From a plasmid, in assembly GCF_056712565.1 (NCBI RefSeq), contig NZ_JBWXXM010000003.1: a stretch of 64,000 nucleotides of DNA. One strand, given 5' to 3'. A program made the translations under genes and the position numbers. A model generated the notes under the pieces. It did no database searches. It was not told where the DNA came from and was given only the letters and a program-made list of their open reading frames with translations. Each line of letters begins with the position of its first letter. Positions within the stretch are counted from its first letter, which is position 1. Shown here one piece after another: positions 3,996-51,300 of this stretch.

Positions 3996-5105
3996 ATGAA
4001 ATTATTATTACTTACAGGTGCAACAGGATTTCTTGGTGGCGCGGTCCTGGATAAGCTGCTGGATAACTGTAATAATATAAATTTGCTACTTTTAGTACGA
4101 GCACCTACTCCACAAGCGGGACTGGAAAGAATTAAAGAAAATATGCGTAAATTTAATGTTTGTGAGGAAAGGTTGCATGCATTAACTAATGATAACATCT
4201 TGCCTGGGGATCTAAATAATCCGGAAGCCTTTCTCATGGATCCTCGTCTTGATGAAGTCACTCATGTTATAAACTGTGCGGCTATAGCTTCTTTTGGTAA
4301 TAATCCTTTTATATGGAATGTGAATGTTACAGGTACACTTGCTTTTGCAAGAAGAATGGCAAAAGTGGCAGGACTGAAACGCTTCCTTCATGTTGGTACT
4401 GCTATGTCTTGTACACCTCATACGGGGTCGCTAGTTAAGGAAGAGTCTGCTTCATCAGAAACAGGTGAACATTTAGTGGAGTATACGCATTCAAAAGCAA
4501 CAATAGAATATCTGATGCGTAAGCAGTGTCCTGATTTACCTTTGTTGGTTGCCCGACCATCAATTATTGTTGGCCACAGTCGTTTAGGGTGCTTACCTTC
4601 AACCAGTATTTTCTGGGTATTCAGAATGGGGTTAATGTTGCAAAAATTTATGTGCTCTCTGGATGATAAAATAGATGTTATCCCTGTAGATTATTGTGCT
4701 GATGCATTGCTAATGTTGCTTGAAAGCTCGTTAATTAATGGTGAGATTGTTCATATATCAGCAGGTAAAGAAAGTAGTGTGACGTTCTCTGCTATTGACG
4801 AAGCTGTAGCCCGTGCTTTGAACTGTGATCCTGTTGGAGACAGATATACTAAAGTCAGTTATGACATACTGGCAATGAGCCGTCATGATTTTAAAAATAT
4901 TTTTGGTCCCTGTAACGAACGCCTTATGTTAAAAGCCATTCGTTTATATGGAGCGTTCAGTATGCTCAATGTTTGTTTCAGTAACGACAAGCTACTGAGT
5001 ATCGGAATGCCTAAACCGCCAAAGTTTACTGATTATATTAAATACTGTATAGAAACGACAAAACACCTTTCAATTCAACAACAAATGGAAGTTGATTTTA
5101 AATAA
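3996..5105 (+). CDS. hlyF: HlyF, NAD(P)-dependent epimerase/dehydratase (SDR) family protein
   Basis: N-terminal Rossmann motif LLLTGATGFLGGAV; 369 aa; gene order ompT-hlyF-mig-14 as on ColV-type plasmids; AT-rich. Confidence 0.8.
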   Translation: MKLLLLTGATGFLGGAVLDKLLDNCNNINLLLLVRAPTPQAGLERIKENMRKFNVCEERLHALTNDNILPGDLNNPEAFLMDPRLDEVTHVINCAAIASFGNNPFIWNVNVTGTLAFARRMAKVAGLKRFLHVGTAMSCTPHTGSLVKEESASSETGEHLVEYTHSKATIEYLMRKQCPDLPLLVARPSIIVGHSRLGCLPSTSIFWVFRMGLMLQKFMCSLDDKIDVIPVDYCADALLMLLESSLINGEIVHISAGKESSVTFSAIDEAVARALNCDPVGDRYTKVSYDILAMSRHDFKNIFGPCNERLMLKAIRLYGAFSMLNVCFSNDKLLSIGMPKPPKFTDYIKYCIETTKHLSIQQQMEVDFK

Positions 5106-7499: not shown

Positions 7500-7790
7500 C
7501 GGCATACGCGCTTCCTTATATAAGCTGTGGTCAGCAGAACAGACATAACATAAGCTGGAGCATGTATATAAGCTGTAGTGAGTAAGTCATGTTTTATGAA
7601 GGGAGCAATGCCTCAGCATCAGGTTACGGGATCACTTACGTAAGGGACAGGCAGATGGCAGCTCAGCTACAGACAGCACTGCAGGAAACAGAATATAAAC
7701 TGCAGTGAGCAGACCACTCACTGCACCGGTTAATATAAGCTGTAGTCAGTAAAGGAGCGCTCTTCACTGACTACAGTTTATGTTCAGCGG
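7500..7790. repeat. RepFIB iterons (direct repeats of ~ATATAAGCTGTAGTCAG) plus terminal palindrome
   Basis: Repeated ATAAGCTGTGGTCAGC / ATATAAGCTGTAGTGAGT / ATATAAACTGCAGTGAGC / ATATAAGCTGTAGTCAGT copies; palindrome CTGTAGTCAGTAAAGGAGCGCTCTTCACTGACTACAG at ~7741-7780. Confidence 0.65.
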
Positions 7791-14338: not shown

Positions 14339-15192
14339 TGGCATTATTACTGGAGCCACTGCAGTTCACCTTTATGAGTCACGCACTGCTGATTTCACTG
14401 GTAGTTTCCATACCCTGTGCGCTGCTGTCGGTCTTTCTGGTCCTGAAAAGTTGGGCACTGATGGGTGACGCGATGAGTCATGCGGTTTTTCCTGGCATCG
14501 TGCTTGCCTGGATTCTGGGGTTACCTCTGGCTACAGGGGCATTCGTCGCCGGAGTATTCTGTGCGGTGGCGACGGGATACCTGAAAGACAACAGCCGAAT
14601 CAAGCAAGATACAGTGATGGGGATTGTTTTTTCTGGCATGTTTGCCGCAGGTCTGATCTTGTATATTGCAGTCAAACCAGACGTACATCTTGATCATATT
14701 CTTTTCGGCGACATGCTCGGGATAACCATCGGCGATATAATCCAGACGGTGATTATTGCCGGACTGGTTACACTTGTTATTAGCGTAAAATGGCGGGATT
14801 TTTTGCTGTTCAGCTTTGATTATCAACAGGCGCAGGCAAGCGGTTTGCATACGAGATGGCTGCATTATGGGCTGCTGTGCATGGTCTCCCTGACCATTGT
14901 GGCGACGCTGAAAGCGGTAGGTATCATTCTCTCTATTTCTCTTCTCATTGCGCCTGGTGCCATTGCGGTACTCCTGACACAACGCTTTCATATTGCGCTC
15001 CTGCTGGCGACTGGCATATCGATATTGGTCTCAATGACTGGTGTCTGGCTGTCCTTTTTTATCGACAGCGCGCCAGCTCCGACAATTGTTGTCTTATTCG
15101 CGGTCATGTTCATCATGACGTTTACCGTTACCAGCATCAACGCACGCACAAAGGAAAATGCCGAACCACGGGATTTGTTATCATCCGATTAG
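14335..15192 (+). CDS. sitD: SitD, ABC transporter permease
   Basis: 285 aa polytopic membrane protein paralogous to SitC; start overlaps sitC stop. Confidence 0.9.
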   Translation: MMALLLEPLQFTFMSHALLISLVVSIPCALLSVFLVLKSWALMGDAMSHAVFPGIVLAWILGLPLATGAFVAGVFCAVATGYLKDNSRIKQDTVMGIVFSGMFAAGLILYIAVKPDVHLDHILFGDMLGITIGDIIQTVIIAGLVTLVISVKWRDFLLFSFDYQQAQASGLHTRWLHYGLLCMVSLTIVATLKAVGIILSISLLIAPGAIAVLLTQRFHIALLLATGISILVSMTGVWLSFFIDSAPAPTIVVLFAVMFIMTFTVTSINARTKENAEPRDLLSSD

Positions 15193-15659
15193 CAGAACAC
15201 TCGGCCAGCAACATCCGCTTATTGGCGATGCGCTTGAACGAATAATGCACAGACTTATGATTCTGATAAGTTTTGTTGCCAGAGAGTTGCTGCGGACTGG
15301 ATAGCAAGTAATGTCGATTCTCAGGGGTAGCAAACAGCGCAGTAAAATGAGGGAAGTAGTGGCAAAACATAGAGAAAATTGGGGGGCGAGGGCCAGTGAT
15401 GTAAAAAACCACGCTAAGAGTTTAATTAATTGTTTGTATTGAAGTTTAATGATCTTAACTCACCCTTAAGAATATCTTCCGGTAACGAAGACGTATAATG
15501 CCCCAGCATATTTATATGGCTATGTATCAGCAGCGATAATCTTGCCGGATGCTACTCCTCAGGAGTTTCTCCCGATTTGCGAAGATGTGACAACGCCTCC
15601 TGCATGTAAAGTGTGTTTCACAGCACAACCGCATTGGTCACCAGCCCCAGAGCACCTAG

Positions 15660-16094
15660 TTGATCTTCCTGCCCTTAACGGTAGCTGAAGATGACTGGGC
15701 TGGATGGAAAATCCTGCATGGTGCATTGGGAGAGCAGATAGAATTGGTTGGCGACGATCTGTTTGTGACCAACGTAAAGTATATTCAGCGCGGCATTGAC
15801 GAAAACCTTGCCAATTCAGCATTGATTAAACTCAACCAGATTGGTTCCCTGAGTGAAACCTTTGATGCGGTACAACTTTGCCATGACAACAACTGGGGCA
15901 CCTTTATCTCACACCGCAGTGGTGAGACAGTGGACAGCTTTATCGCCGATATGACAGTTGCAATGCGCGCAGGTCATCTCAAAACGGGAGCTCCATGCCG
16001 GGGTGAGCGTATTGAAAAATATAACCAGCTTATGAGAATTGAGGATGAACTGGGTTCATCGGCGCAATTTGCCGGAAAGTCTGCCTTTAAATGA
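15660..16094 (+). pseudogene. eno: enolase (eno) 3' fragment
   Basis: ...[104 protein letters not shown]... matches enolase C-terminal third; N-terminal two thirds absent. Confidence 0.8.
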
Positions 16095-16144
16095 CATTAT
16101 TGTGCCAATCCCCCAGGCTTACACGTCGGGGTTATTCTGGAGGA

Positions 16145-16363
16145 ATGATGAAAGCTCACGTTTTTGTTATTTCTATGCTTACTGGCATTGTCGTCACCTA
16201 TGCCGTGTTACTTCTTGGTTGCTTGTTCATCGATAAAACGCTCCCCACTGTAGATGTTGTCATTCTGTCACTTGTCGTGGGGGCTTCTGCTCAGCAATTG
16301 TCGAGGGTATTAATGTCAATAAATAGAACCTTCCCTTATCTTGCATGTAGTCAAAGGATATAA
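16145..16363 (+). CDS. hypothetical small membrane protein (~72 aa) upstream of crcB
   Basis: MMKAHVFVISMLTGIVVTYAVLLLGCLFIDKTLPTVDVVILSLVVGASAQQL...; two predicted TM helices; start chosen inside track ORF 16091-16363. Confidence 0.3.
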   Translation: MMKAHVFVISMLTGIVVTYAVLLLGCLFIDKTLPTVDVVILSLVVGASAQQLSRVLMSINRTFPYLACSQRI

Positions 16364-16434
16364 ATTAACAATATCAGTCAAATGAGAACATATTCTGATA
16401 TTGTTACGATAAAAAATTATTTTATGAGGGGTAC

Positions 16435-16815
16435 ATGATTAAATCACTTTTTGCCGTCATTATCGGCGGTTCTGTTGGATGTACTCTGCGCTGGTTACTG
16501 TCCACACGCTTTAACAGTCTTTTTCCAAATCTACCTCCAGGTACACTGGTGGTGAACCTCCTTGCCGGGTTAATTATTGGTACTGCGTTGGCGTACTTTT
16601 TACGACAACCACACCTTGATCCTTTTTGGAAATTAATGATAACAACGGGACTTTGTGGAGGTCTGAGTACTTTCTCTACATTTTCTGTTGAAGTATTCGC
16701 ATTACTCCAGGCGGGAAATTATATATGGGCTTTGACGTCTGTACTTGTTCACGTCATTGGCTCCCTCATCATGACAGCTTTAGGCTTTTTTATCATAACC
16801 ATACTTTTCGCATGA
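16435..16815 (+). CDS. crcB: CrcB/FluC fluoride channel family protein
   Basis: 126 aa, four TM segments, motifs GGxxGxxxR and GxCGGLSTFSTFS characteristic of CrcB/Fluc. Confidence 0.85.
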   Translation: MIKSLFAVIIGGSVGCTLRWLLSTRFNSLFPNLPPGTLVVNLLAGLIIGTALAYFLRQPHLDPFWKLMITTGLCGGLSTFSTFSVEVFALLQAGNYIWALTSVLVHVIGSLIMTALGFFIITILFA

Positions 16816-16877
16816 GAATTCATTAACGTTACAGGTTTATCAACTAATGTGACGCTTAGGATAGAATTTCGCTCCAT

Positions 16878-16938
16878 GGTATGCGTTTGCAGTCATTACA
16901 GTCTCCATGACGACTGTAATGACTGCAAACGCATTACC
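16878..16938. repeat. long near-perfect inverted repeat (~26-bp arms, 7-nt spacer)
   Basis: GGTATGCGTTTGCAGTCATTACAGTC-TCCATGA-CGACTGTAATGACTGCAAACGCATTACC downstream of crcB. Confidence 0.7.
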
Positions 16939-17194
16939 TGACATATCAGTATAAACAATGAATTAACCTCTTGGCGTATTTTTTACATCACTGGCCCTCA
17001 CCCCCCAAAATTCTCTCTGAAAAATTGTTGCGGTTAACGTTGCCAATGTATCCACCCATTTCAGAAGACGATCTGGCATCCTGGTGGCATGCTGCGATGT
17101 GCTTCAGGTGAGTGCACTGGGCGGTCAGCACAGGCGGTTTCGACAGCGAAATTGCACAGGACGTTATGCCGGCTGTGAGTACAACATCATAGCC

Positions 17195-18388
17195 TTACTT
17201 GATTGTACGGTAATGCCAAATACATGCAGACACTATGGTAAATAATACAGCGGCAAATAATGCCGTCACAATCAGCGCGATTGAGACACCTGTTTTCGAC
17301 GCCAGTGGCACCAACAATGCGCACAGCCCATAGCCAAGTGTGTGACTGGCCGCAAGCCAGCCCGCGCCTGCGCCGTCGGCCAGCTTATCATTCAGTAAAA
17401 GTTGATAAGCGGGTGTTGCCAGAGCGGCCCCAAATGACAGCACTGCACAGCCCAGGTAAAACAACCATAGCTGTTCAGTGAGCATGATAGCCAGACCACT
17501 ACTCATCAACACCCCGGCACTCAGGAGCAGAGCCACTGGAGTCAGGCGCTGTGGACGGAGTACCACGAACTGCGCGATAAGCGCAGCTATTGCGGACAGC
17601 CCCAACAACCACGCCACCTGTTGGCTAATAGTGGTGGTATCAGTATCGAACTGGCGAGTAAGGGCTGGCGAAAGTCCAAGCTGCATCATGCTCATTGCCG
17701 CAGCCAGTAACATTGCGCAAAGCAGATAAGGCAGGCAATCCCGCTTCAGGCTGACGCTCTTGCGCTCCGGTGTGGGCTGTGGTGGTGTGCCGGGCAACCG
17801 CAGAAGCATCACCACAGCCCACACCGGAGCTGCCATCAGCATCCACACTGGCGCCAGAGGGTGAATGACCAACATTGCCGCCGCGCACAGCGGCCCGAAT
17901 AGCCTGCCGCAGCTCAGGCCGGAGCTGATGGTTGCCAGAGCGGCCATGCGATTCCCTTCTCCCGCTCTCTGCAATGCCCAGACCTGACAGGCTGGCACCA
18001 TTGCTGACACGGTCAGACCGTAGACGATCCGGGCGATGATTAATATTCCCAACCCCACCGCTGTTGTTACGGCACCGGTAGCCATCAGCACGCTTCCCAG
18101 CCCAAGCAGGGTAAAGCTTACGCCATATCCTCCCAGAGCCCACAGCACCACAGTCTTACTGCCAGTAAGGGAAATTTGCTTTCCCCACCATGGGGAAGAT
18201 GGCAGAAACAGCATTGAGCCCAGCATCAGCAGGGCAGCCCATACAGACAGACTCAGATTTGTCTGTATGACCAGAACAGGGAGTACAACCAGCAGACCGT
18301 TCTGTCCGATACCGAGAAGACCGGCACTGAACGCCAGTGGCCAGCAGGACAGGGTTTTTTGGGGCGTATCTTCGATCTTAGATGACAT
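17195..18388 (-). CDS. shiF: ShiF-like MFS transporter, divergent from aerobactin operon
   Basis: 397 aa polytopic membrane protein immediately upstream of and divergent from iucA. Confidence 0.75.
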   Translation of the reverse strand: MSSKIEDTPQKTLSCWPLAFSAGLLGIGQNGLLVVLPVLVIQTNLSLSVWAALLMLGSMLFLPSSPWWGKQISLTGSKTVVLWALGGYGVSFTLLGLGSVLMATGAVTTAVGLGILIIARIVYGLTVSAMVPACQVWALQRAGEGNRMAALATISSGLSCGRLFGPLCAAAMLVIHPLAPVWMLMAAPVWAVVMLLRLPGTPPQPTPERKSVSLKRDCLPYLLCAMLLAAAMSMMQLGLSPALTRQFDTDTTTISQQVAWLLGLSAIAALIAQFVVLRPQRLTPVALLLSAGVLMSSGLAIMLTEQLWLFYLGCAVLSFGAALATPAYQLLLNDKLADGAGAGWLAASHTLGYGLCALLVPLASKTGVSIALIVTALFAAVLFTIVSACIWHYRTIK

Positions 18389-18459
18389 TGTAATGTTTCA
18401 ACACCATGTATTAATTGTGTTTATTTGTAAAATTAATTTTTCTGACAATAACATTTCTC

Positions 18460-18500
18460 ATTGATAATGAGAATCATTATTGACATAATTGTTATTATTT
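18460..18500. promoter_or_regulatory. aerobactin (iucA) promoter with Fur boxes
   Basis: CATTGATAATGAGAATCATTATTGACATAATTGTTATTATTTTAC matches Fur consensus GATAATGATAATCATTATC; just upstream of iucA RBS AGGAG. Confidence 0.85.
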
Positions 18501-24293: not shown

Positions 24294-26495
24294 ATGATGA
24301 TAAGCAAAAAGTATACGCTTTGGGCTCTCAACCCACTGCTTCTTACCATGATGGCGCCAGCAGTCGCTCAACAAACCGATGATGAAACGTTCGTGGTGTC
24401 TGCCAACCGCAGCAATCGCACCGTAGCGGAGATGGCGCAAACCACCTGGGTTATCGAAAACGCCGAACTGGAACAGCAGATTCAGGGCGGCAAAGAGCTT
24501 AAAGACGCACTGGCTCAGCTGATCCCTGGCCTTGACGTCAGCAGCCGGAGCCGCACCAACTACGGTATGAATGTGCGTGGCCGCCCGCTGGTCGTGCTGG
24601 TTGACGGCGTGCGTCTCAACTCTTCACGTACCGACAGCCGACAACTGGACTCTATAGATCCTTTTAATATCGACCATATTGAAGTGATCTCCGGTGCGAC
24701 GTCCCTGTACGGCGGCGGCAGTACCGGTGGCCTGATCAACATCGTGACCAAAAAAGGCCAGCCGGAAACCATGATGGAGTTTGAGGCTGGCACCAAAAGT
24801 GGCTTTAGCAGCAGTAAAGATCACGATGAACGCATTGCCGGAGCTGTCTCCGGCGGAAATGAGCATATCTCCGGACGTCTTTCCGTGGCATATCAGAAAT
24901 TTGGCGGCTGGTTTGACGGTAACGGCGATGCCACCTTGCTTGATAACACCCAGACCGGCCTGCAGTACTCCGATCGGCTGGACATCATGGGAACTGGTAC
25001 GCTGAACATCGATGAATCCCGGCAGCTTCAGTTGATCACACAGTACTATAAAAGCCAGGGCGACGACGATTACGGGCTTAATCTCGGGAAAGGCTTCTCT
25101 GCCATCAGAGGGACCAGCACGCCATTCGTCAGTAACGGGCTGAATTCCGACCGTATTCCCGGCACTGAGCGGCATTTGATCAGCCTGCAGTACTCTGACA
25201 GCGCTTTTCTGGGACAGGAGCTGGTCGGTCAGGTTTACTACCGCGATGAGTCGTTGCGATTCTACCCGTTCCCGACGGTAAATGCGAACAAACAGGTGAC
25301 GGCTTTCTCTTCGTCACAGCAGGACACCGACCAGTACGGCATGAAACTGACTCTGAACAGCAAACCGATGGACGGCTGGCAAATCACCTGGGGGCTGGAT
25401 GCTGATCATGAGCGCTTTACCTCCAACCAGATGTTCTTCGACCTGGCTCAGGCAAGCGCTTCCGGAGGGCTGAACAACAAGAAGATTTACACCACCGGGC
25501 GCTATCCGTCGTATGACATCACCAACCTGGCGGCCTTCCTGCAATCAGGCTATGACATCAATAATCTCTTTACCCTCAACGGTGGCGTACGCTATCAGTA
25601 CACTGAAAACAAGATTGATGATTTCATCGGCTACGCGCAGCAACGGCAGATTGCCGCCGGGAAGGCTACATCCGCCGACGCCATTCCTGGCGGCTCAGTC
25701 GATTACGACAACTTCCTGTTCAACGCCGGTCTGCTGATGCACATCACCGAACGCCAGCAGGCATGGCTCAACTTCTCCCAGGGCGTGGAGCTGCCGGACC
25801 CGGGTAAATACTATGGTCGCGGCATCTATGGTGCTGCAGTGAACGGCCATCTTCCTCTAACAAAGAGTGTGAACGTCAGCGACAGCAAGCTGGAAGGCGT
25901 GAAAGTCGATTCTTATGAGCTGGGCTGGCGCTTTACTGGCAATAATCTGCGTACCCAAATCGCGGCCTACTATTCGATTTCTGATAAGAGCGTGGTGGCG
26001 AATAAAGATCTGACCATCAGCGTGGTGGACGACAAACGCCGTATTTACGGCGTGGAAGGTGCGGTGGACTACCTGATTCCTGATACTGACTGGAGTACCG
26101 GAGTGAACTTCAACGTGCTGAAAACTGAGTCGAAAGTGAACGGTACCTGGCAGAAATACGATGTGAAGACAGCAAGCCCATCAAAAGCGACAGCCTACAT
26201 TGGCTGGGCACCGGACCCGTGGAGTCTGCGCGTGCAGAGCACCACCTCCTTTGACGTGAGCGACGCGCAGGGCTACAAGGTCGATGGCTATACCACCGCG
26301 GATCTGCTCGGCAGTTATCAGCTTCCGGTGGGTACACTCAGCTTCAGCATTGAAAACCTCTTCGACCGTGACTACACCACTGTCTGGGGGCAGCGTGCAC
26401 CACTGTACTACAGCCCGGGTTACGGCCCAGCGTCACTGTACGACTACAAAGGCAGGGGCCGAACCTTTGGTCTGAACTACTCTGTGCTGTTCTGA
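24294..26495 (+). CDS. iutA: IutA, TonB-dependent ferric aerobactin receptor
   Basis: 733 aa with signal peptide, TonB box region, C-terminal ...NYSVLF typical of TonB-dependent receptors. Confidence 0.9.
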   Translation: MMISKKYTLWALNPLLLTMMAPAVAQQTDDETFVVSANRSNRTVAEMAQTTWVIENAELEQQIQGGKELKDALAQLIPGLDVSSRSRTNYGMNVRGRPLVVLVDGVRLNSSRTDSRQLDSIDPFNIDHIEVISGATSLYGGGSTGGLINIVTKKGQPETMMEFEAGTKSGFSSSKDHDERIAGAVSGGNEHISGRLSVAYQKFGGWFDGNGDATLLDNTQTGLQYSDRLDIMGTGTLNIDESRQLQLITQYYKSQGDDDYGLNLGKGFSAIRGTSTPFVSNGLNSDRIPGTERHLISLQYSDSAFLGQELVGQVYYRDESLRFYPFPTVNANKQVTAFSSSQQDTDQYGMKLTLNSKPMDGWQITWGLDADHERFTSNQMFFDLAQASASGGLNNKKIYTTGRYPSYDITNLAAFLQSGYDINNLFTLNGGVRYQYTENKIDDFIGYAQQRQIAAGKATSADAIPGGSVDYDNFLFNAGLLMHITERQQAWLNFSQGVELPDPGKYYGRGIYGAAVNGHLPLTKSVNVSDSKLEGVKVDSYELGWRFTGNNLRTQIAAYYSISDKSVVANKDLTISVVDDKRRIYGVEGAVDYLIPDTDWSTGVNFNVLKTESKVNGTWQKYDVKTASPSKATAYIGWAPDPWSLRVQSTTSFDVSDAQGYKVDGYTTADLLGSYQLPVGTLSFSIENLFDRDYTTVWGQRAPLYYSPGYGPASLYDYKGRGRTFGLNYSVLF

Positions 26496-26564: not shown

Positions 26565-26632
26565 AATACACGACATAATCTGTAGTCAGGGAGGATAGAC
26601 TCTTTACTGACTACAGATTATGTCGTGTTCCG
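26565..26632. repeat. palindrome downstream of iutA resembling the RepFIB iteron-proximal palindrome
   Basis: ACACGACATAATCTGTAGTCAGGGAGGATAGACTCTTTACTGACTACAGATTATGTCGTGT; compare 7738-7785 CTGTAGTCAGTAAAGGAGCGCTCTTCACTGACTACAG. Confidence 0.6.
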
Positions 26633-42094: not shown

Positions 42095-42650
42095 CTTTCC
42101 GTTCCTCTCCTGTTTATGGCTTTTCCGGGCGTCCCCCTGGCGGGGCGGGCTGTCGTGAACGGAGCCAGCGGAGCTGTCTCCGCCCTGGCGGGCTTCCATC
42201 CCTGACGCGAAACCATGGCTTGCAGCGACCGTTCCGGTCGCGCCGCCTCTGTCGCGCCGTGGCCTGCGCTCCCGGCATCCCGGCAAAAGGCGCCGGAATG
42301 TAAGGAGCAACGCCGTTTCGCAAACCGCGCTTCACGTCGTTGCGGCGGGTCCCTGCTCATTGCCTGCCAAGTGCCACACACCCGTATGAGTCCCTGTCGC
42401 CGGGGGCTGAGACAGCCACAACCTGCCGCACTGACTGTCCAGGGTAAATGAACAGCCCACAAAATTTTTTACCCAGAACCCGGTAAAAAATTTTGCGTTC
42501 TGCCCAGGACAGGTGCGTCAGGCCGTGGCAGTGATGCCCCTTGCGGCGAAGGTTCTCAAACGGGTGAAGTTCATACCACAGGGAATACAGCAGCAGGTTC
42601 CCGCGAAACGTCAAAACCGCGGCTCCCGAAACTCAACGGGTGATGTTCTT
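42095..42650. repeat. Frpo-like leading-region repeat (single-strand promoter/ssi-like element), copy 1
   Basis: ~550-bp GC-rich block CCTTTTCCGGGCGTCCCCCTGGCGGGGCGGGCTGTCGTGAACGGAGCCAGCGGAGCTGTCTCCGCCCTGGCGGGCTTCC... ending ...CAAAACCGCGGCTCCCGAAACTCAA, recurring 3 times, each upstream of a leading-region gene and preceded by a polypyrimidine tract. Confidence 0.65.
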
Positions 42651-50744: not shown

Positions 50745-51300
50745 TTTGTTGTTCTCCTGCTTATGCCTTTTCCGGGCGTCCCCCTGGCGGGGCGGGCTGT
50801 CGTGAACGGAGCCAGCGGAGCTGTCTCCGCCCTGGCGGGCTTCCATCCCTGACGCGAAACCCCGGGCTTGCAGCGACCGTTCCGGTCGCGCCGCCTCTGT
50901 CGCGCCGTGGCCTGCGCTCCCGGCATCCCGGCAAAAGGCCGCCGGGATGTAAGGGGCAACGCCGTTTCGCAAACCGCGCTTCACGTCGTTGCGGCGGGTT
51001 CCTGCCCGTTGTTGTGTCCGGTGCCATTCACCTGTTTAAGCCCCTGTCGCCGGGAGCTGATACAGCCACAACCTGCCGCACTGACTGTCCAGGGTAAATG
51101 AACAGCCCACAAAATTTTTTACCCAAAACCCGGTAAAAAATTTTGCGTTCTGCCCAGGACAGGTGCGTCAGGCCGTGGCAGTGATGCCCCTTGCGGCGAA
51201 GGTTCTCAAACAGGTGATGGTGAATACCGGAGGGAACAAACGGCAGGTCCCCGCAAAACGTCAAAACCGCGGCTCCCGAAACTCAACAGATGATGGGGGC
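50745..51300. repeat. Frpo-like leading-region repeat, copy 3
   Basis: Third copy of the repeat seen at 42095 and 45355. Confidence 0.65.

Follow-up and report, generated by a model that had tools for sequence, protein, structure and literature searches.

A perfect hairpin in a Tn3-type crcB element of ColV plasmids and its probable origin by quasipalindrome template switching

Template switching that perfects quasipalindromes (QP) is an established mutational mechanism in Escherichia coli (PMC7202029, reviewing Ripley 1982, Dutra and Lovett 2006), and comparative work has put it forward as a way in which inverted repeats become perfect and RNA hairpins arise in genomes (PMC5941160, PMC8794818). 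A second described system that bears on the locus presented here is the mobile fluoride-resistance operon ppaC-uspA-eno-gpmA-crcB, which is known from GI3 of Enterobacter cloacae FRM (PMC5533749) and from Pantoea plasmids (PMC5971314). The third is the Tn3 family of transposons with its non-autonomous derivatives, the TIMEs and the mobile insertion cassettes.

We analysed a stretch of 64,000 nucleotides of plasmid DNA (contig NZ_JBWXXM010000003.1 of assembly GCF_056712565.1), which as a whole is called the window below. Downstream of crcB it contains a long hairpin (Table 1). A repeat search has shown two arms, 16881-16903 and 16912-16934, of 23 nt each, which are 100% complementary and lie 8 nt apart; past a 1-nt bulge, three extra pairs (GGT/ACC) extend them to arms of 26 bp, so that the hairpin spans 16878-16938. 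The inverted repeat with 26-bp arms that a first-pass annotation had described at this place is thus real, and the loop it gave, TCCATGA, turned out to be one base short of the actual TCCATGAC. The same annotation called the structure exceptionally stable, far longer than a typical intrinsic terminator and without a T-run. These points were borne out. Folded as RNA, the hairpin has a free energy of -44.5 kcal/mol, compared with -17.7 +/- 2.9 kcal/mol for shuffled sequences (z = -9.4; 0 of 200 shuffles as good). The minus strand is equally stable (-46.7 kcal/mol), and as DNA the hairpin reaches -28.5 kcal/mol (z = -10.4). No T-run is found on either strand, and a terminator scan of 16816-17194 was empty. 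The hairpin starts 62 nt past the stop codon of crcB (16813-16815), and it is the sole strong structure of the 379-nt spacer that separates the convergent genes crcB and shiF.

About 770 ColV-type IncF plasmids carry an identical hairpin, and the surrounding region is 99.9-100% identical in roughly 800 such plasmids from E. coli, Salmonella and Klebsiella. One ColV plasmid, OR902841, has lost 2 nt of the left arm. An assembly artefact was considered and ruled out, the hairpin being present in hundreds of independent complete plasmids. Unlike the dispersed REP, BIME and ERIC repeats, the locus was single-copy wherever it was searched for, in the window as well as in plasmids and E. coli genomes, and a scan of viral contigs for either variant of the hairpin gave 0 matches. 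A second copy of the arm, allowing for up to 3 mismatches, is absent from the 64-kb window, where shuffled arms gave no match either. At the hairpin, Rfam returned only sub-threshold matches to microRNA precursors, that is, to generic long hairpins.

Judging from the comparisons described below, we hold with a probability of roughly 85% that the perfect hairpin is the product of a quasipalindrome template switch within a Tn3-type element, and that it has no role as a designed site.

Table 1. Features of the crcB element and its surroundings in the window
Feature	Position	Strand	Remarks
Left flanking direct repeat AAAATT	15375..15380	.	abuts the IRL tip
Tn3-family non-autonomous element, 1,626 bp	15381..17006	+	carries truncated eno, ORF and crcB; sole IR pair in the window
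IRL GGGGGGCGAGGGCCAGTGATGTAAAAAACCACGCTAAG	15381..15418	+	left terminal inverted repeat
TnpA remnant	15453..15683	-	residues 897-973 of a 985-aa TnpA; protein 90% identical to a Pantoea plasmid TnpA
Enolase gene, 3' part	15684..16094	+	homology to full-length eno of relatives starts exactly at 15684
crcB (fluoride exporter, 126 aa)	16435..16815	+	
Probable inner part of a degenerate second right-end IR (IR-c)	16855..16876	+	tip TTGACCTCAAACCCG in L038/L041, lost here
Right-end module with hairpin	16877..17006	+	from a Tn3-family transposon related to the SIR2-HerA transposon
Hairpin left arm	16878..16903	.	26 nt; 23 perfect pairs 16881-16903, GGT outside the bulge
Patch GCAGTCATTA	16889..16898	.	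seen in the ColV lineage only; reverse complement of 16917-16926 in full; replaces ancestral CATTGGCACT
Loop TCCATGAC	16904..16911	.	conserved among all relatives; the parental transposon end has it too (CCATGAC)
Hairpin right arm	16912..16938	.	native subterminal Tn3-family right end; about 85% identity to the SIR2-HerA transposon end
IRR, 37 nt	16970..17006	-	similarity to IRL extends inward to about 16947
Right flanking direct repeat AAAATT	17007..17012	.	abuts the IRR tip
ISEc12-like fragment (88%, 17052-17108) and IS2-like fragment (82%, 17113-17172)	17052..17172		between element and shiF
shiF (MFS transporter)	17195..18388	-	convergent with crcB; chromosomal shiF homology from about 17187

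The element in which the hairpin lies can be delimited directly. In a pattern search of the 64 kb, copies of a Tn3-type inverted repeat (IR) were found only at 15381-15408 (+) and 16979-17006 (-), that is, in inverted orientation. IRL and IRR align with each other across about 60 nt, and the inverted copy of the terminal repeat is seen at 15381-15442. The tip is GGGG and the inner motif is ...ACGCTAAG (in IRR: ACGCCAAG), which agrees with the Tn3-family pattern of about 38 bp running from GGGG to ...ACGYTAAG. From left to right the element consists of IRL, the tnpA remnant, truncated eno, an ORF, crcB, a composite right end and IRR, and its true boundary on the side of shiF is 17006/17007. Since the transposase is represented only by a C-terminal remnant of 77 residues, the element is non-autonomous.

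The direct repeat AAAATT, which is present at both tips, is 6 bp long, whereas Tn3-family elements canonically make target-site duplications of 5 bp. We searched plasmids for the empty site, in which the flanks would be joined over a single AAAATT (cf. ...GAGAAAATTCTCTCTG...), and found no uninterrupted site among them. Over 15684-17006, a span that takes in crcB, the hairpin region and IRR, three Logan contigs with a full-length eno (L038-L040) show 91% identity with the window. The contig L041 carries the same eno-crcB-IRR unit, 89% identical, at another insertion site. The closest relative is L042 (94.6% identical), the sequence of which stops one base before the ten-base patch listed in Table 1. 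Past the common IRR tip, the flank is AAAATT in the window and TAGCAT and ATCTTA in L038 and L041. Because the three share the right tip and then diverge completely, the copies lie at different sites.

The spacer between crcB and shiF is, according to a sensitive search, a patchwork of mobile-element pieces, and the ISEc12 and IS2 fragments are further scars at the sit/iuc junction. In this respect the setting proposed by the first-pass annotation, a junction between mosaic blocks, was partly right: the hairpin does lie in mobile DNA near a mosaic boundary, but that boundary is found 68 nt to the right of it, at the tip of the element.

The right end itself may be composite. The 21 nt that are missing in the window between 16876 and 16877, directly to the left of the hairpin, include CCTCAAACCC, which matches the tip of a Tn3-type IR (shuffle p of about 0.02); the window and L042 share this deletion. 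Together with 16855-16876 the lost tip is suggestive, but only suggestive, of a degenerate second right-end repeat, in which case an older crcB transposon would have inserted 138 nt from the end of a SIR2-HerA-type transposon.

In NZ_CP058880, an IS1A (551-1248) is inserted just upstream of crcB within the Tn3-derived unit, and the hairpin is intact. The same IS1A feature is listed under the match in NZ_CP058749 and in NZ_LR890289.

As for the cargo, the nearest named relative of crcB is that of Rahnella variigena (90% identity at the amino acid level), where the gene ends a DHH/ppaC-usp-eno-ORF-crcB cluster. At the nucleotide level (87% identity) the homology begins at 15684, midway through eno, and stops at 16821, 6 nt after the crcB stop codon; beyond it, the Tn3-family remnant in Rahnella variigena is a different one. 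A search of 14500-18500 for a fluoride riboswitch gave nothing, and crcB therefore probably relies on read-through from sitABCD or on an internal promoter. Taken by their homologies, the genes known as the "truncated enolase + crcB" core genes of ColV/ExPEC plasmids appear to have come as a 1.6-kb Tn3-family element from the mobile fluoride-resistance operon. In the literature searched, we found no statement of a Tn3-element origin of the ColV crcB and eno genes.

The right half of the hairpin belongs to a transposon end. From 16905, which lies within the loop, to about 17009 the window is 84-85% identical to a sequence found in many unrelated plasmids. In the Salmonella IncHI1 plasmid NZ_CP039559 (L004) this sequence forms the right end of a Tn3-family transposon that is complete, with its genes arranged as tnpA-tnpR-SIR2-DUF87/HerA and its terminal repeats at 4589 and 12104; the loop, the right arm and the next 70 nt align with it up to the terminal ...GGCCCTCA..CCCC tip. 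The same right end is present in 19 metagenome contigs, in a Rahnella genome and in several plasmids, with three different upstream contexts, and a scan of genome contigs with CTGCAAACGCAKTACCTRAC gave one true match (Rahnella, the same SIR2-HerA transposon) and one chance match. The perfect left arm is absent from L004 and from 21 other copies of this Tn3-family right end. On the left, a search with the flank (16816-16882, given as 56 nt) at E<=10 found no match outside ColV plasmids.

Note that the complete transposon (L004, 4589-12104) carries as its cargo the SIR2 and DUF87/HerA anti-phage defence pair. It is also found in L007 and in 13 metagenome contigs, and it has spread among plasmids and genomes of Salmonella, E. 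coli, Citrobacter and Rahnella. In some variants, a Tn21-like IR or an IS-like end is inserted near the same subterminal spot.

These homologies bear on the origin that the first-pass annotation had suggested, namely that the two arms were the terminal inverted repeats, now side by side, of a very small or decayed mobile element (MITE-like), or a site-specific recombination site at the crcB/shiF junction. A hairpin in mobile-element DNA near a block boundary is what one would expect from such an origin, and the inner arm bears a likeness to what we take to be the IS1 terminal repeat (about 13 of 15 nt), which would count in the same direction. This likeness to an IS1 end was seen by eye only, and we set it aside as redundant given the homology to the Tn3 end. 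The terminal inverted repeats of the element are IRL and IRR, and the one beyond the crcB block has its tip at 17006 and does not coincide with either arm. The right arm is ordinary subterminal sequence of the Tn3 family, which runs on into the transposon end and which occurs elsewhere without a matching left arm. A search for the arm at other mosaic junctions, the check named by the first-pass annotation, found it at this one locus only. In shuffle tests, the flank to the left of the hairpin had no significant similarity to the Tn3 IR in inverted orientation. Neither do the relatives look as if a site had been recombined there: diverged copies continue through the spot, only ten inner bases of the left arm differ, and the sequence is essentially unique within a conserved and uninterrupted context, which is what the first-pass annotation itself had said would refute its proposal. 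We therefore give this origin next to no credence. A related candidate, a MITE or TIME with a degenerate inverted Tn3 IR to the left of the hairpin, was also rejected, as the shuffle tests were negative and the IR-like sequence there is in direct orientation and suggestive only. Likewise, the arms do not behave as terminal inverted repeats that end an element, recur as copies and are flanked by target-site duplications; they belong to a single locus with a left flank that is not IR-like.

What does distinguish the window from its relatives is the patch. In the window, the left side of the hairpin reads TGGTATGCGTTT-GCAGTCATTA-CAGTC-TCCATGAC and the right side GACTG-TAATGACTGC-AAACGCATTACC. The left side of L038 (91%) and L041 (89%) reads TGGTATGCGTTT-CATTGGCACT-CAGTC-TCCATGAC; the right side of L038 is GACTG-TAATGACAGT-AAACGCACTACC, and L041 has a 9-nt deletion here. 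In the parental transposon ends, of which we distinguish types C and A, the left side is TTGGTGTTGCGTT-C(C)(G/A)TTGTCCCT-.... Between the window and L038/L041, 10 of 10 consecutive bases differ at 16889-16898, whereas elsewhere the sequences are 91-93% identical, that is, with a background of 7-9%. All ten patch bases are the reverse complement of the right arm of the window itself, and the change is length-neutral, ten bases for ten.

Everything around the patch pre-exists in the relatives: in the left arm these are the outer 12 and the inner 5 nt, and the loop and the right arm are there as well. At the hairpin site an imperfect inverted repeat is seen in L038-L040 and L041 and likewise in the parental ends L004 and L021; in the relatives this quasipalindrome pairs over about 11 bp in its outer stem and over 5 bp in its inner one, with a mismatched interior of 10 x 10 nt. 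RNA folding at the site is correspondingly weaker, with -22 kcal/mol for L038 and between -16 and -18 kcal/mol for the parental ends, against the value given above for the window. The ten bases of L038 match parental types C and A at 7/10 and 8/10 positions, and those of L038/L041 match their own opposite arm at 1/10, while the window patch matches the parental sequence at 0/10 in the alignment register. Since L038 and L041 are parental-like and the window is not, the imperfect state is ancestral and the perfect state derived. Furthermore, the arms of the window are 23/23 identical amid a divergence of 9-15% from the relatives, which points to a recent event. None of the relatives compared shows an intermediate lineage with the state just before the change of the patch.

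The same comparison bears on two other histories. One is a fold-back inverted duplication, in which the transposon end was cut at CCATGAC and an inverted copy of 24-31 nt was added, together with the 7-bp direct repeat CTCCATG. Such a history would explain why CTCCATG brackets the left arm (at 16872-16878 and at 16903-16909), why the plasmid relatives found by BLAST match only from 16905 rightward, and why the alignments to L004 to the left of 16905 are not significant alone. It is refuted by L038 and L041, which already have the outer TGGTATGCGTTT and the inner CAGTC, and for both the parental transposon has homologous sequence. The novelty is confined to ten bases, and CTCCAT is already found at both places in L038. 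We regard this history as highly improbable.

The other history would have the perfect hairpin as the ancestral and functional state, for example as a terminator after the cargo genes, which then decayed in every other lineage. The parental end does retain an 11-bp stem at the same position (with two G-U pairs as RNA), and perfect inverted repeats tend to be preserved in proteobacteria (PMC5941160). On the other hand, the same ten-base decay would be needed in L038, in L041 and in both parental types, which resemble one another at 7-8 of the ten positions and the window at none; the arms of the window are perfect while their surroundings have diverged; and the fold of L004 is no better than that of shuffled sequences (z = -0.5). 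An ancestral perfect hairpin is therefore very unlikely.

The spot looks generally unstable, as the sister lineages have deletions and indels there too: the deletion in the right arm of L041 lies between GTAA repeats, the 21-nt deletion of the window and L042 directly adjoins the hairpin, and an indel within the mismatched interior separates parental type A from type C.

This leads back to the template switch. The change is clustered in one arm, is the complement of the other arm, is neutral in length and is bounded by stems, and these properties together make up the signature of quasipalindrome template switching. From this signature we infer the mechanism, and the order of events would be as follows. 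A Tn3-family right end that natively held an imperfect inverted repeat some 70-130 nt inside its terminal repeat would have become the right end of a small non-autonomous Tn3-type element with the remains of the fluoride operon (truncated eno, ORF and crcB). Transposition would then have brought this element into an ancestral ColV plasmid, within its sit-iuc region. In the ColV lineage, the nascent strand may have been templated briefly on the opposite arm during replication, with the register held by the two existing stems. In this way the ten mismatched bases of the left arm would have been rewritten, giving the perfect 23-bp (26-bp) hairpin without a change in length.

Does the hairpin do anything today? 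Most likely it has no dedicated role. We found no evidence of a dedicated site: it is not an intrinsic terminator, it has no Rfam match and it is not repeated. Nevertheless, any transcript that crosses it, in either direction, is predicted to form a very stable stem-loop of 23-26 bp, which may incidentally block 3' exonucleases, impede read-through or act as a substrate of RNase III. The plasmid pS88 expresses the eno fragment, the ORF and crcB as RNA, at levels that increase along with those of the sit genes, and iron limitation strongly induces its shiF (PMC3438092). Given that the stem would form in any crossing transcript and that crcB and shiF are transcribed in pS88, an incidental role as a barrier is plausible.

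Potentially, the hairpin arose by the same template switch and was then kept as a useful bidirectional RNA barrier, be it as a 3'-end stabiliser, as a block to read-through or as an RNase III site. It would then stand between crcB, which is reached by read-through from the sit operon with its regulation by iron and manganese, and the Fur-regulated shiF. The expression pattern in pS88, the fact that the hairpin is the sole strong structure in a spacer with no canonical terminator, and the proposal that template switching is a source of new RNA hairpins (PMC8794818) all argue in this direction. However, the hairpin has no U-tract, OR902841 has the 2-nt deletion in its left arm, and the sister lineages lack the perfect hairpin. 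Conservation across about 770 plasmids cannot tell neutrality from selection because the whole region is near-clonal (at least 99.9% identical). We consider retention as a barrier unlikely. The stricter version, that the template switch created a functional RNA element which insulates the crcB and shiF-iuc units or stabilises their 3' ends and which was retained for that, seems to us more doubtful still; if true, it would be a natural, dated case of the birth of an RNA hairpin through template switching in ColV virulence plasmids.

Several other inverted repeats were seen in the window. Two long hairpins (7726-7790 and 26568-26628) are copies of a palindromic element of about 45 nt with the core ATAATCTGTAGTCAG...CTGACTACAGATTAT; one copy lies about 70 nt downstream of a 733-aa ORF (24294-26495, presumed iutA). 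Relatives of this element (84-88%) are found unannotated elsewhere on many IncF plasmids, and in complete E. coli genomes they occupy 2,248 places on plasmids versus 28 on chromosomes. Inside the coding sequence of shiF (17764-17830) there is a 24-nt inverted repeat, 96% complementary, which Rfam matches as microRNA-like below threshold. Finally, identical inverted repeats with 21-nt arms are found at 42453-42502 and 51103-51152, 8.65 kb apart, which points to a large direct duplication or a repeated element in that part of the window.

In summary, the hairpin would be a further example of a known mutational event, in a Tn3-derived crcB cassette that has previously gone unremarked. The odd structure of a widespread virulence-plasmid backbone is thereby explained without invoking a new element, and a Tn3-element origin with identifiable ends and flanking repeats helps to annotate ColV plasmids. 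As a natural QP template switch the case would be unusually clean, with its ten-base tract, the ancestral state in sister copies and a polarity given by an outgroup, and it could be used in studies of mutation signatures.

With the Tn3 family, including TIMEs and mobile insertion cassettes, the unit shares inverted repeats of 38 and 37 bp, the GGGG tip, the inner motif and a C-terminal TnpA remnant that reads into IRL; the direct repeats at its flanks are AT-rich, and its copies have inserted at different places. Unlike an autonomous Tn3 element it has no intact transposase or resolvase, and its flanking repeat is one of 6 bp rather than the canonical 5 bp. It carries cargo genes and is therefore larger than a TIME. 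The composite-looking right end, in which a degenerate inner IR is followed by 130 nt of the end of another transposon, also departs from the norm, and a hairpin is not among the defining parts of the family. The cargo is the tail of the mobile fluoride-resistance operon, the closest version found being that of Rahnella variigena. Compared with the full operon, the ColV version is truncated within eno and lacks ppaC, uspA and the fluoride riboswitch. Like an intrinsic terminator or a REP-type stabiliser, the hairpin is a stable stem-loop just past a gene and between convergent units; it differs from the former by the missing U-tract and by a far longer stem, and from REP and BIME by being single-copy.

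The closest likeness is to QP mutations. As in the model of Ripley, at the thyA hotspot of E. coli and in the lacZ QP reporters of the Lovett laboratory (PMC7202029), an imperfect repeat would have become perfect in one step. The substitutions are likewise clustered in one arm, form the reverse complement of the other, are length-neutral and are bounded by prior pairing. Typical QP reporters show changes of a few bases, and the converted tract here is longer (10 nt). Unlike the events in reporters, the present one is deduced from a comparison of natural sequences, and it concerns noncoding transposon DNA on a plasmid.
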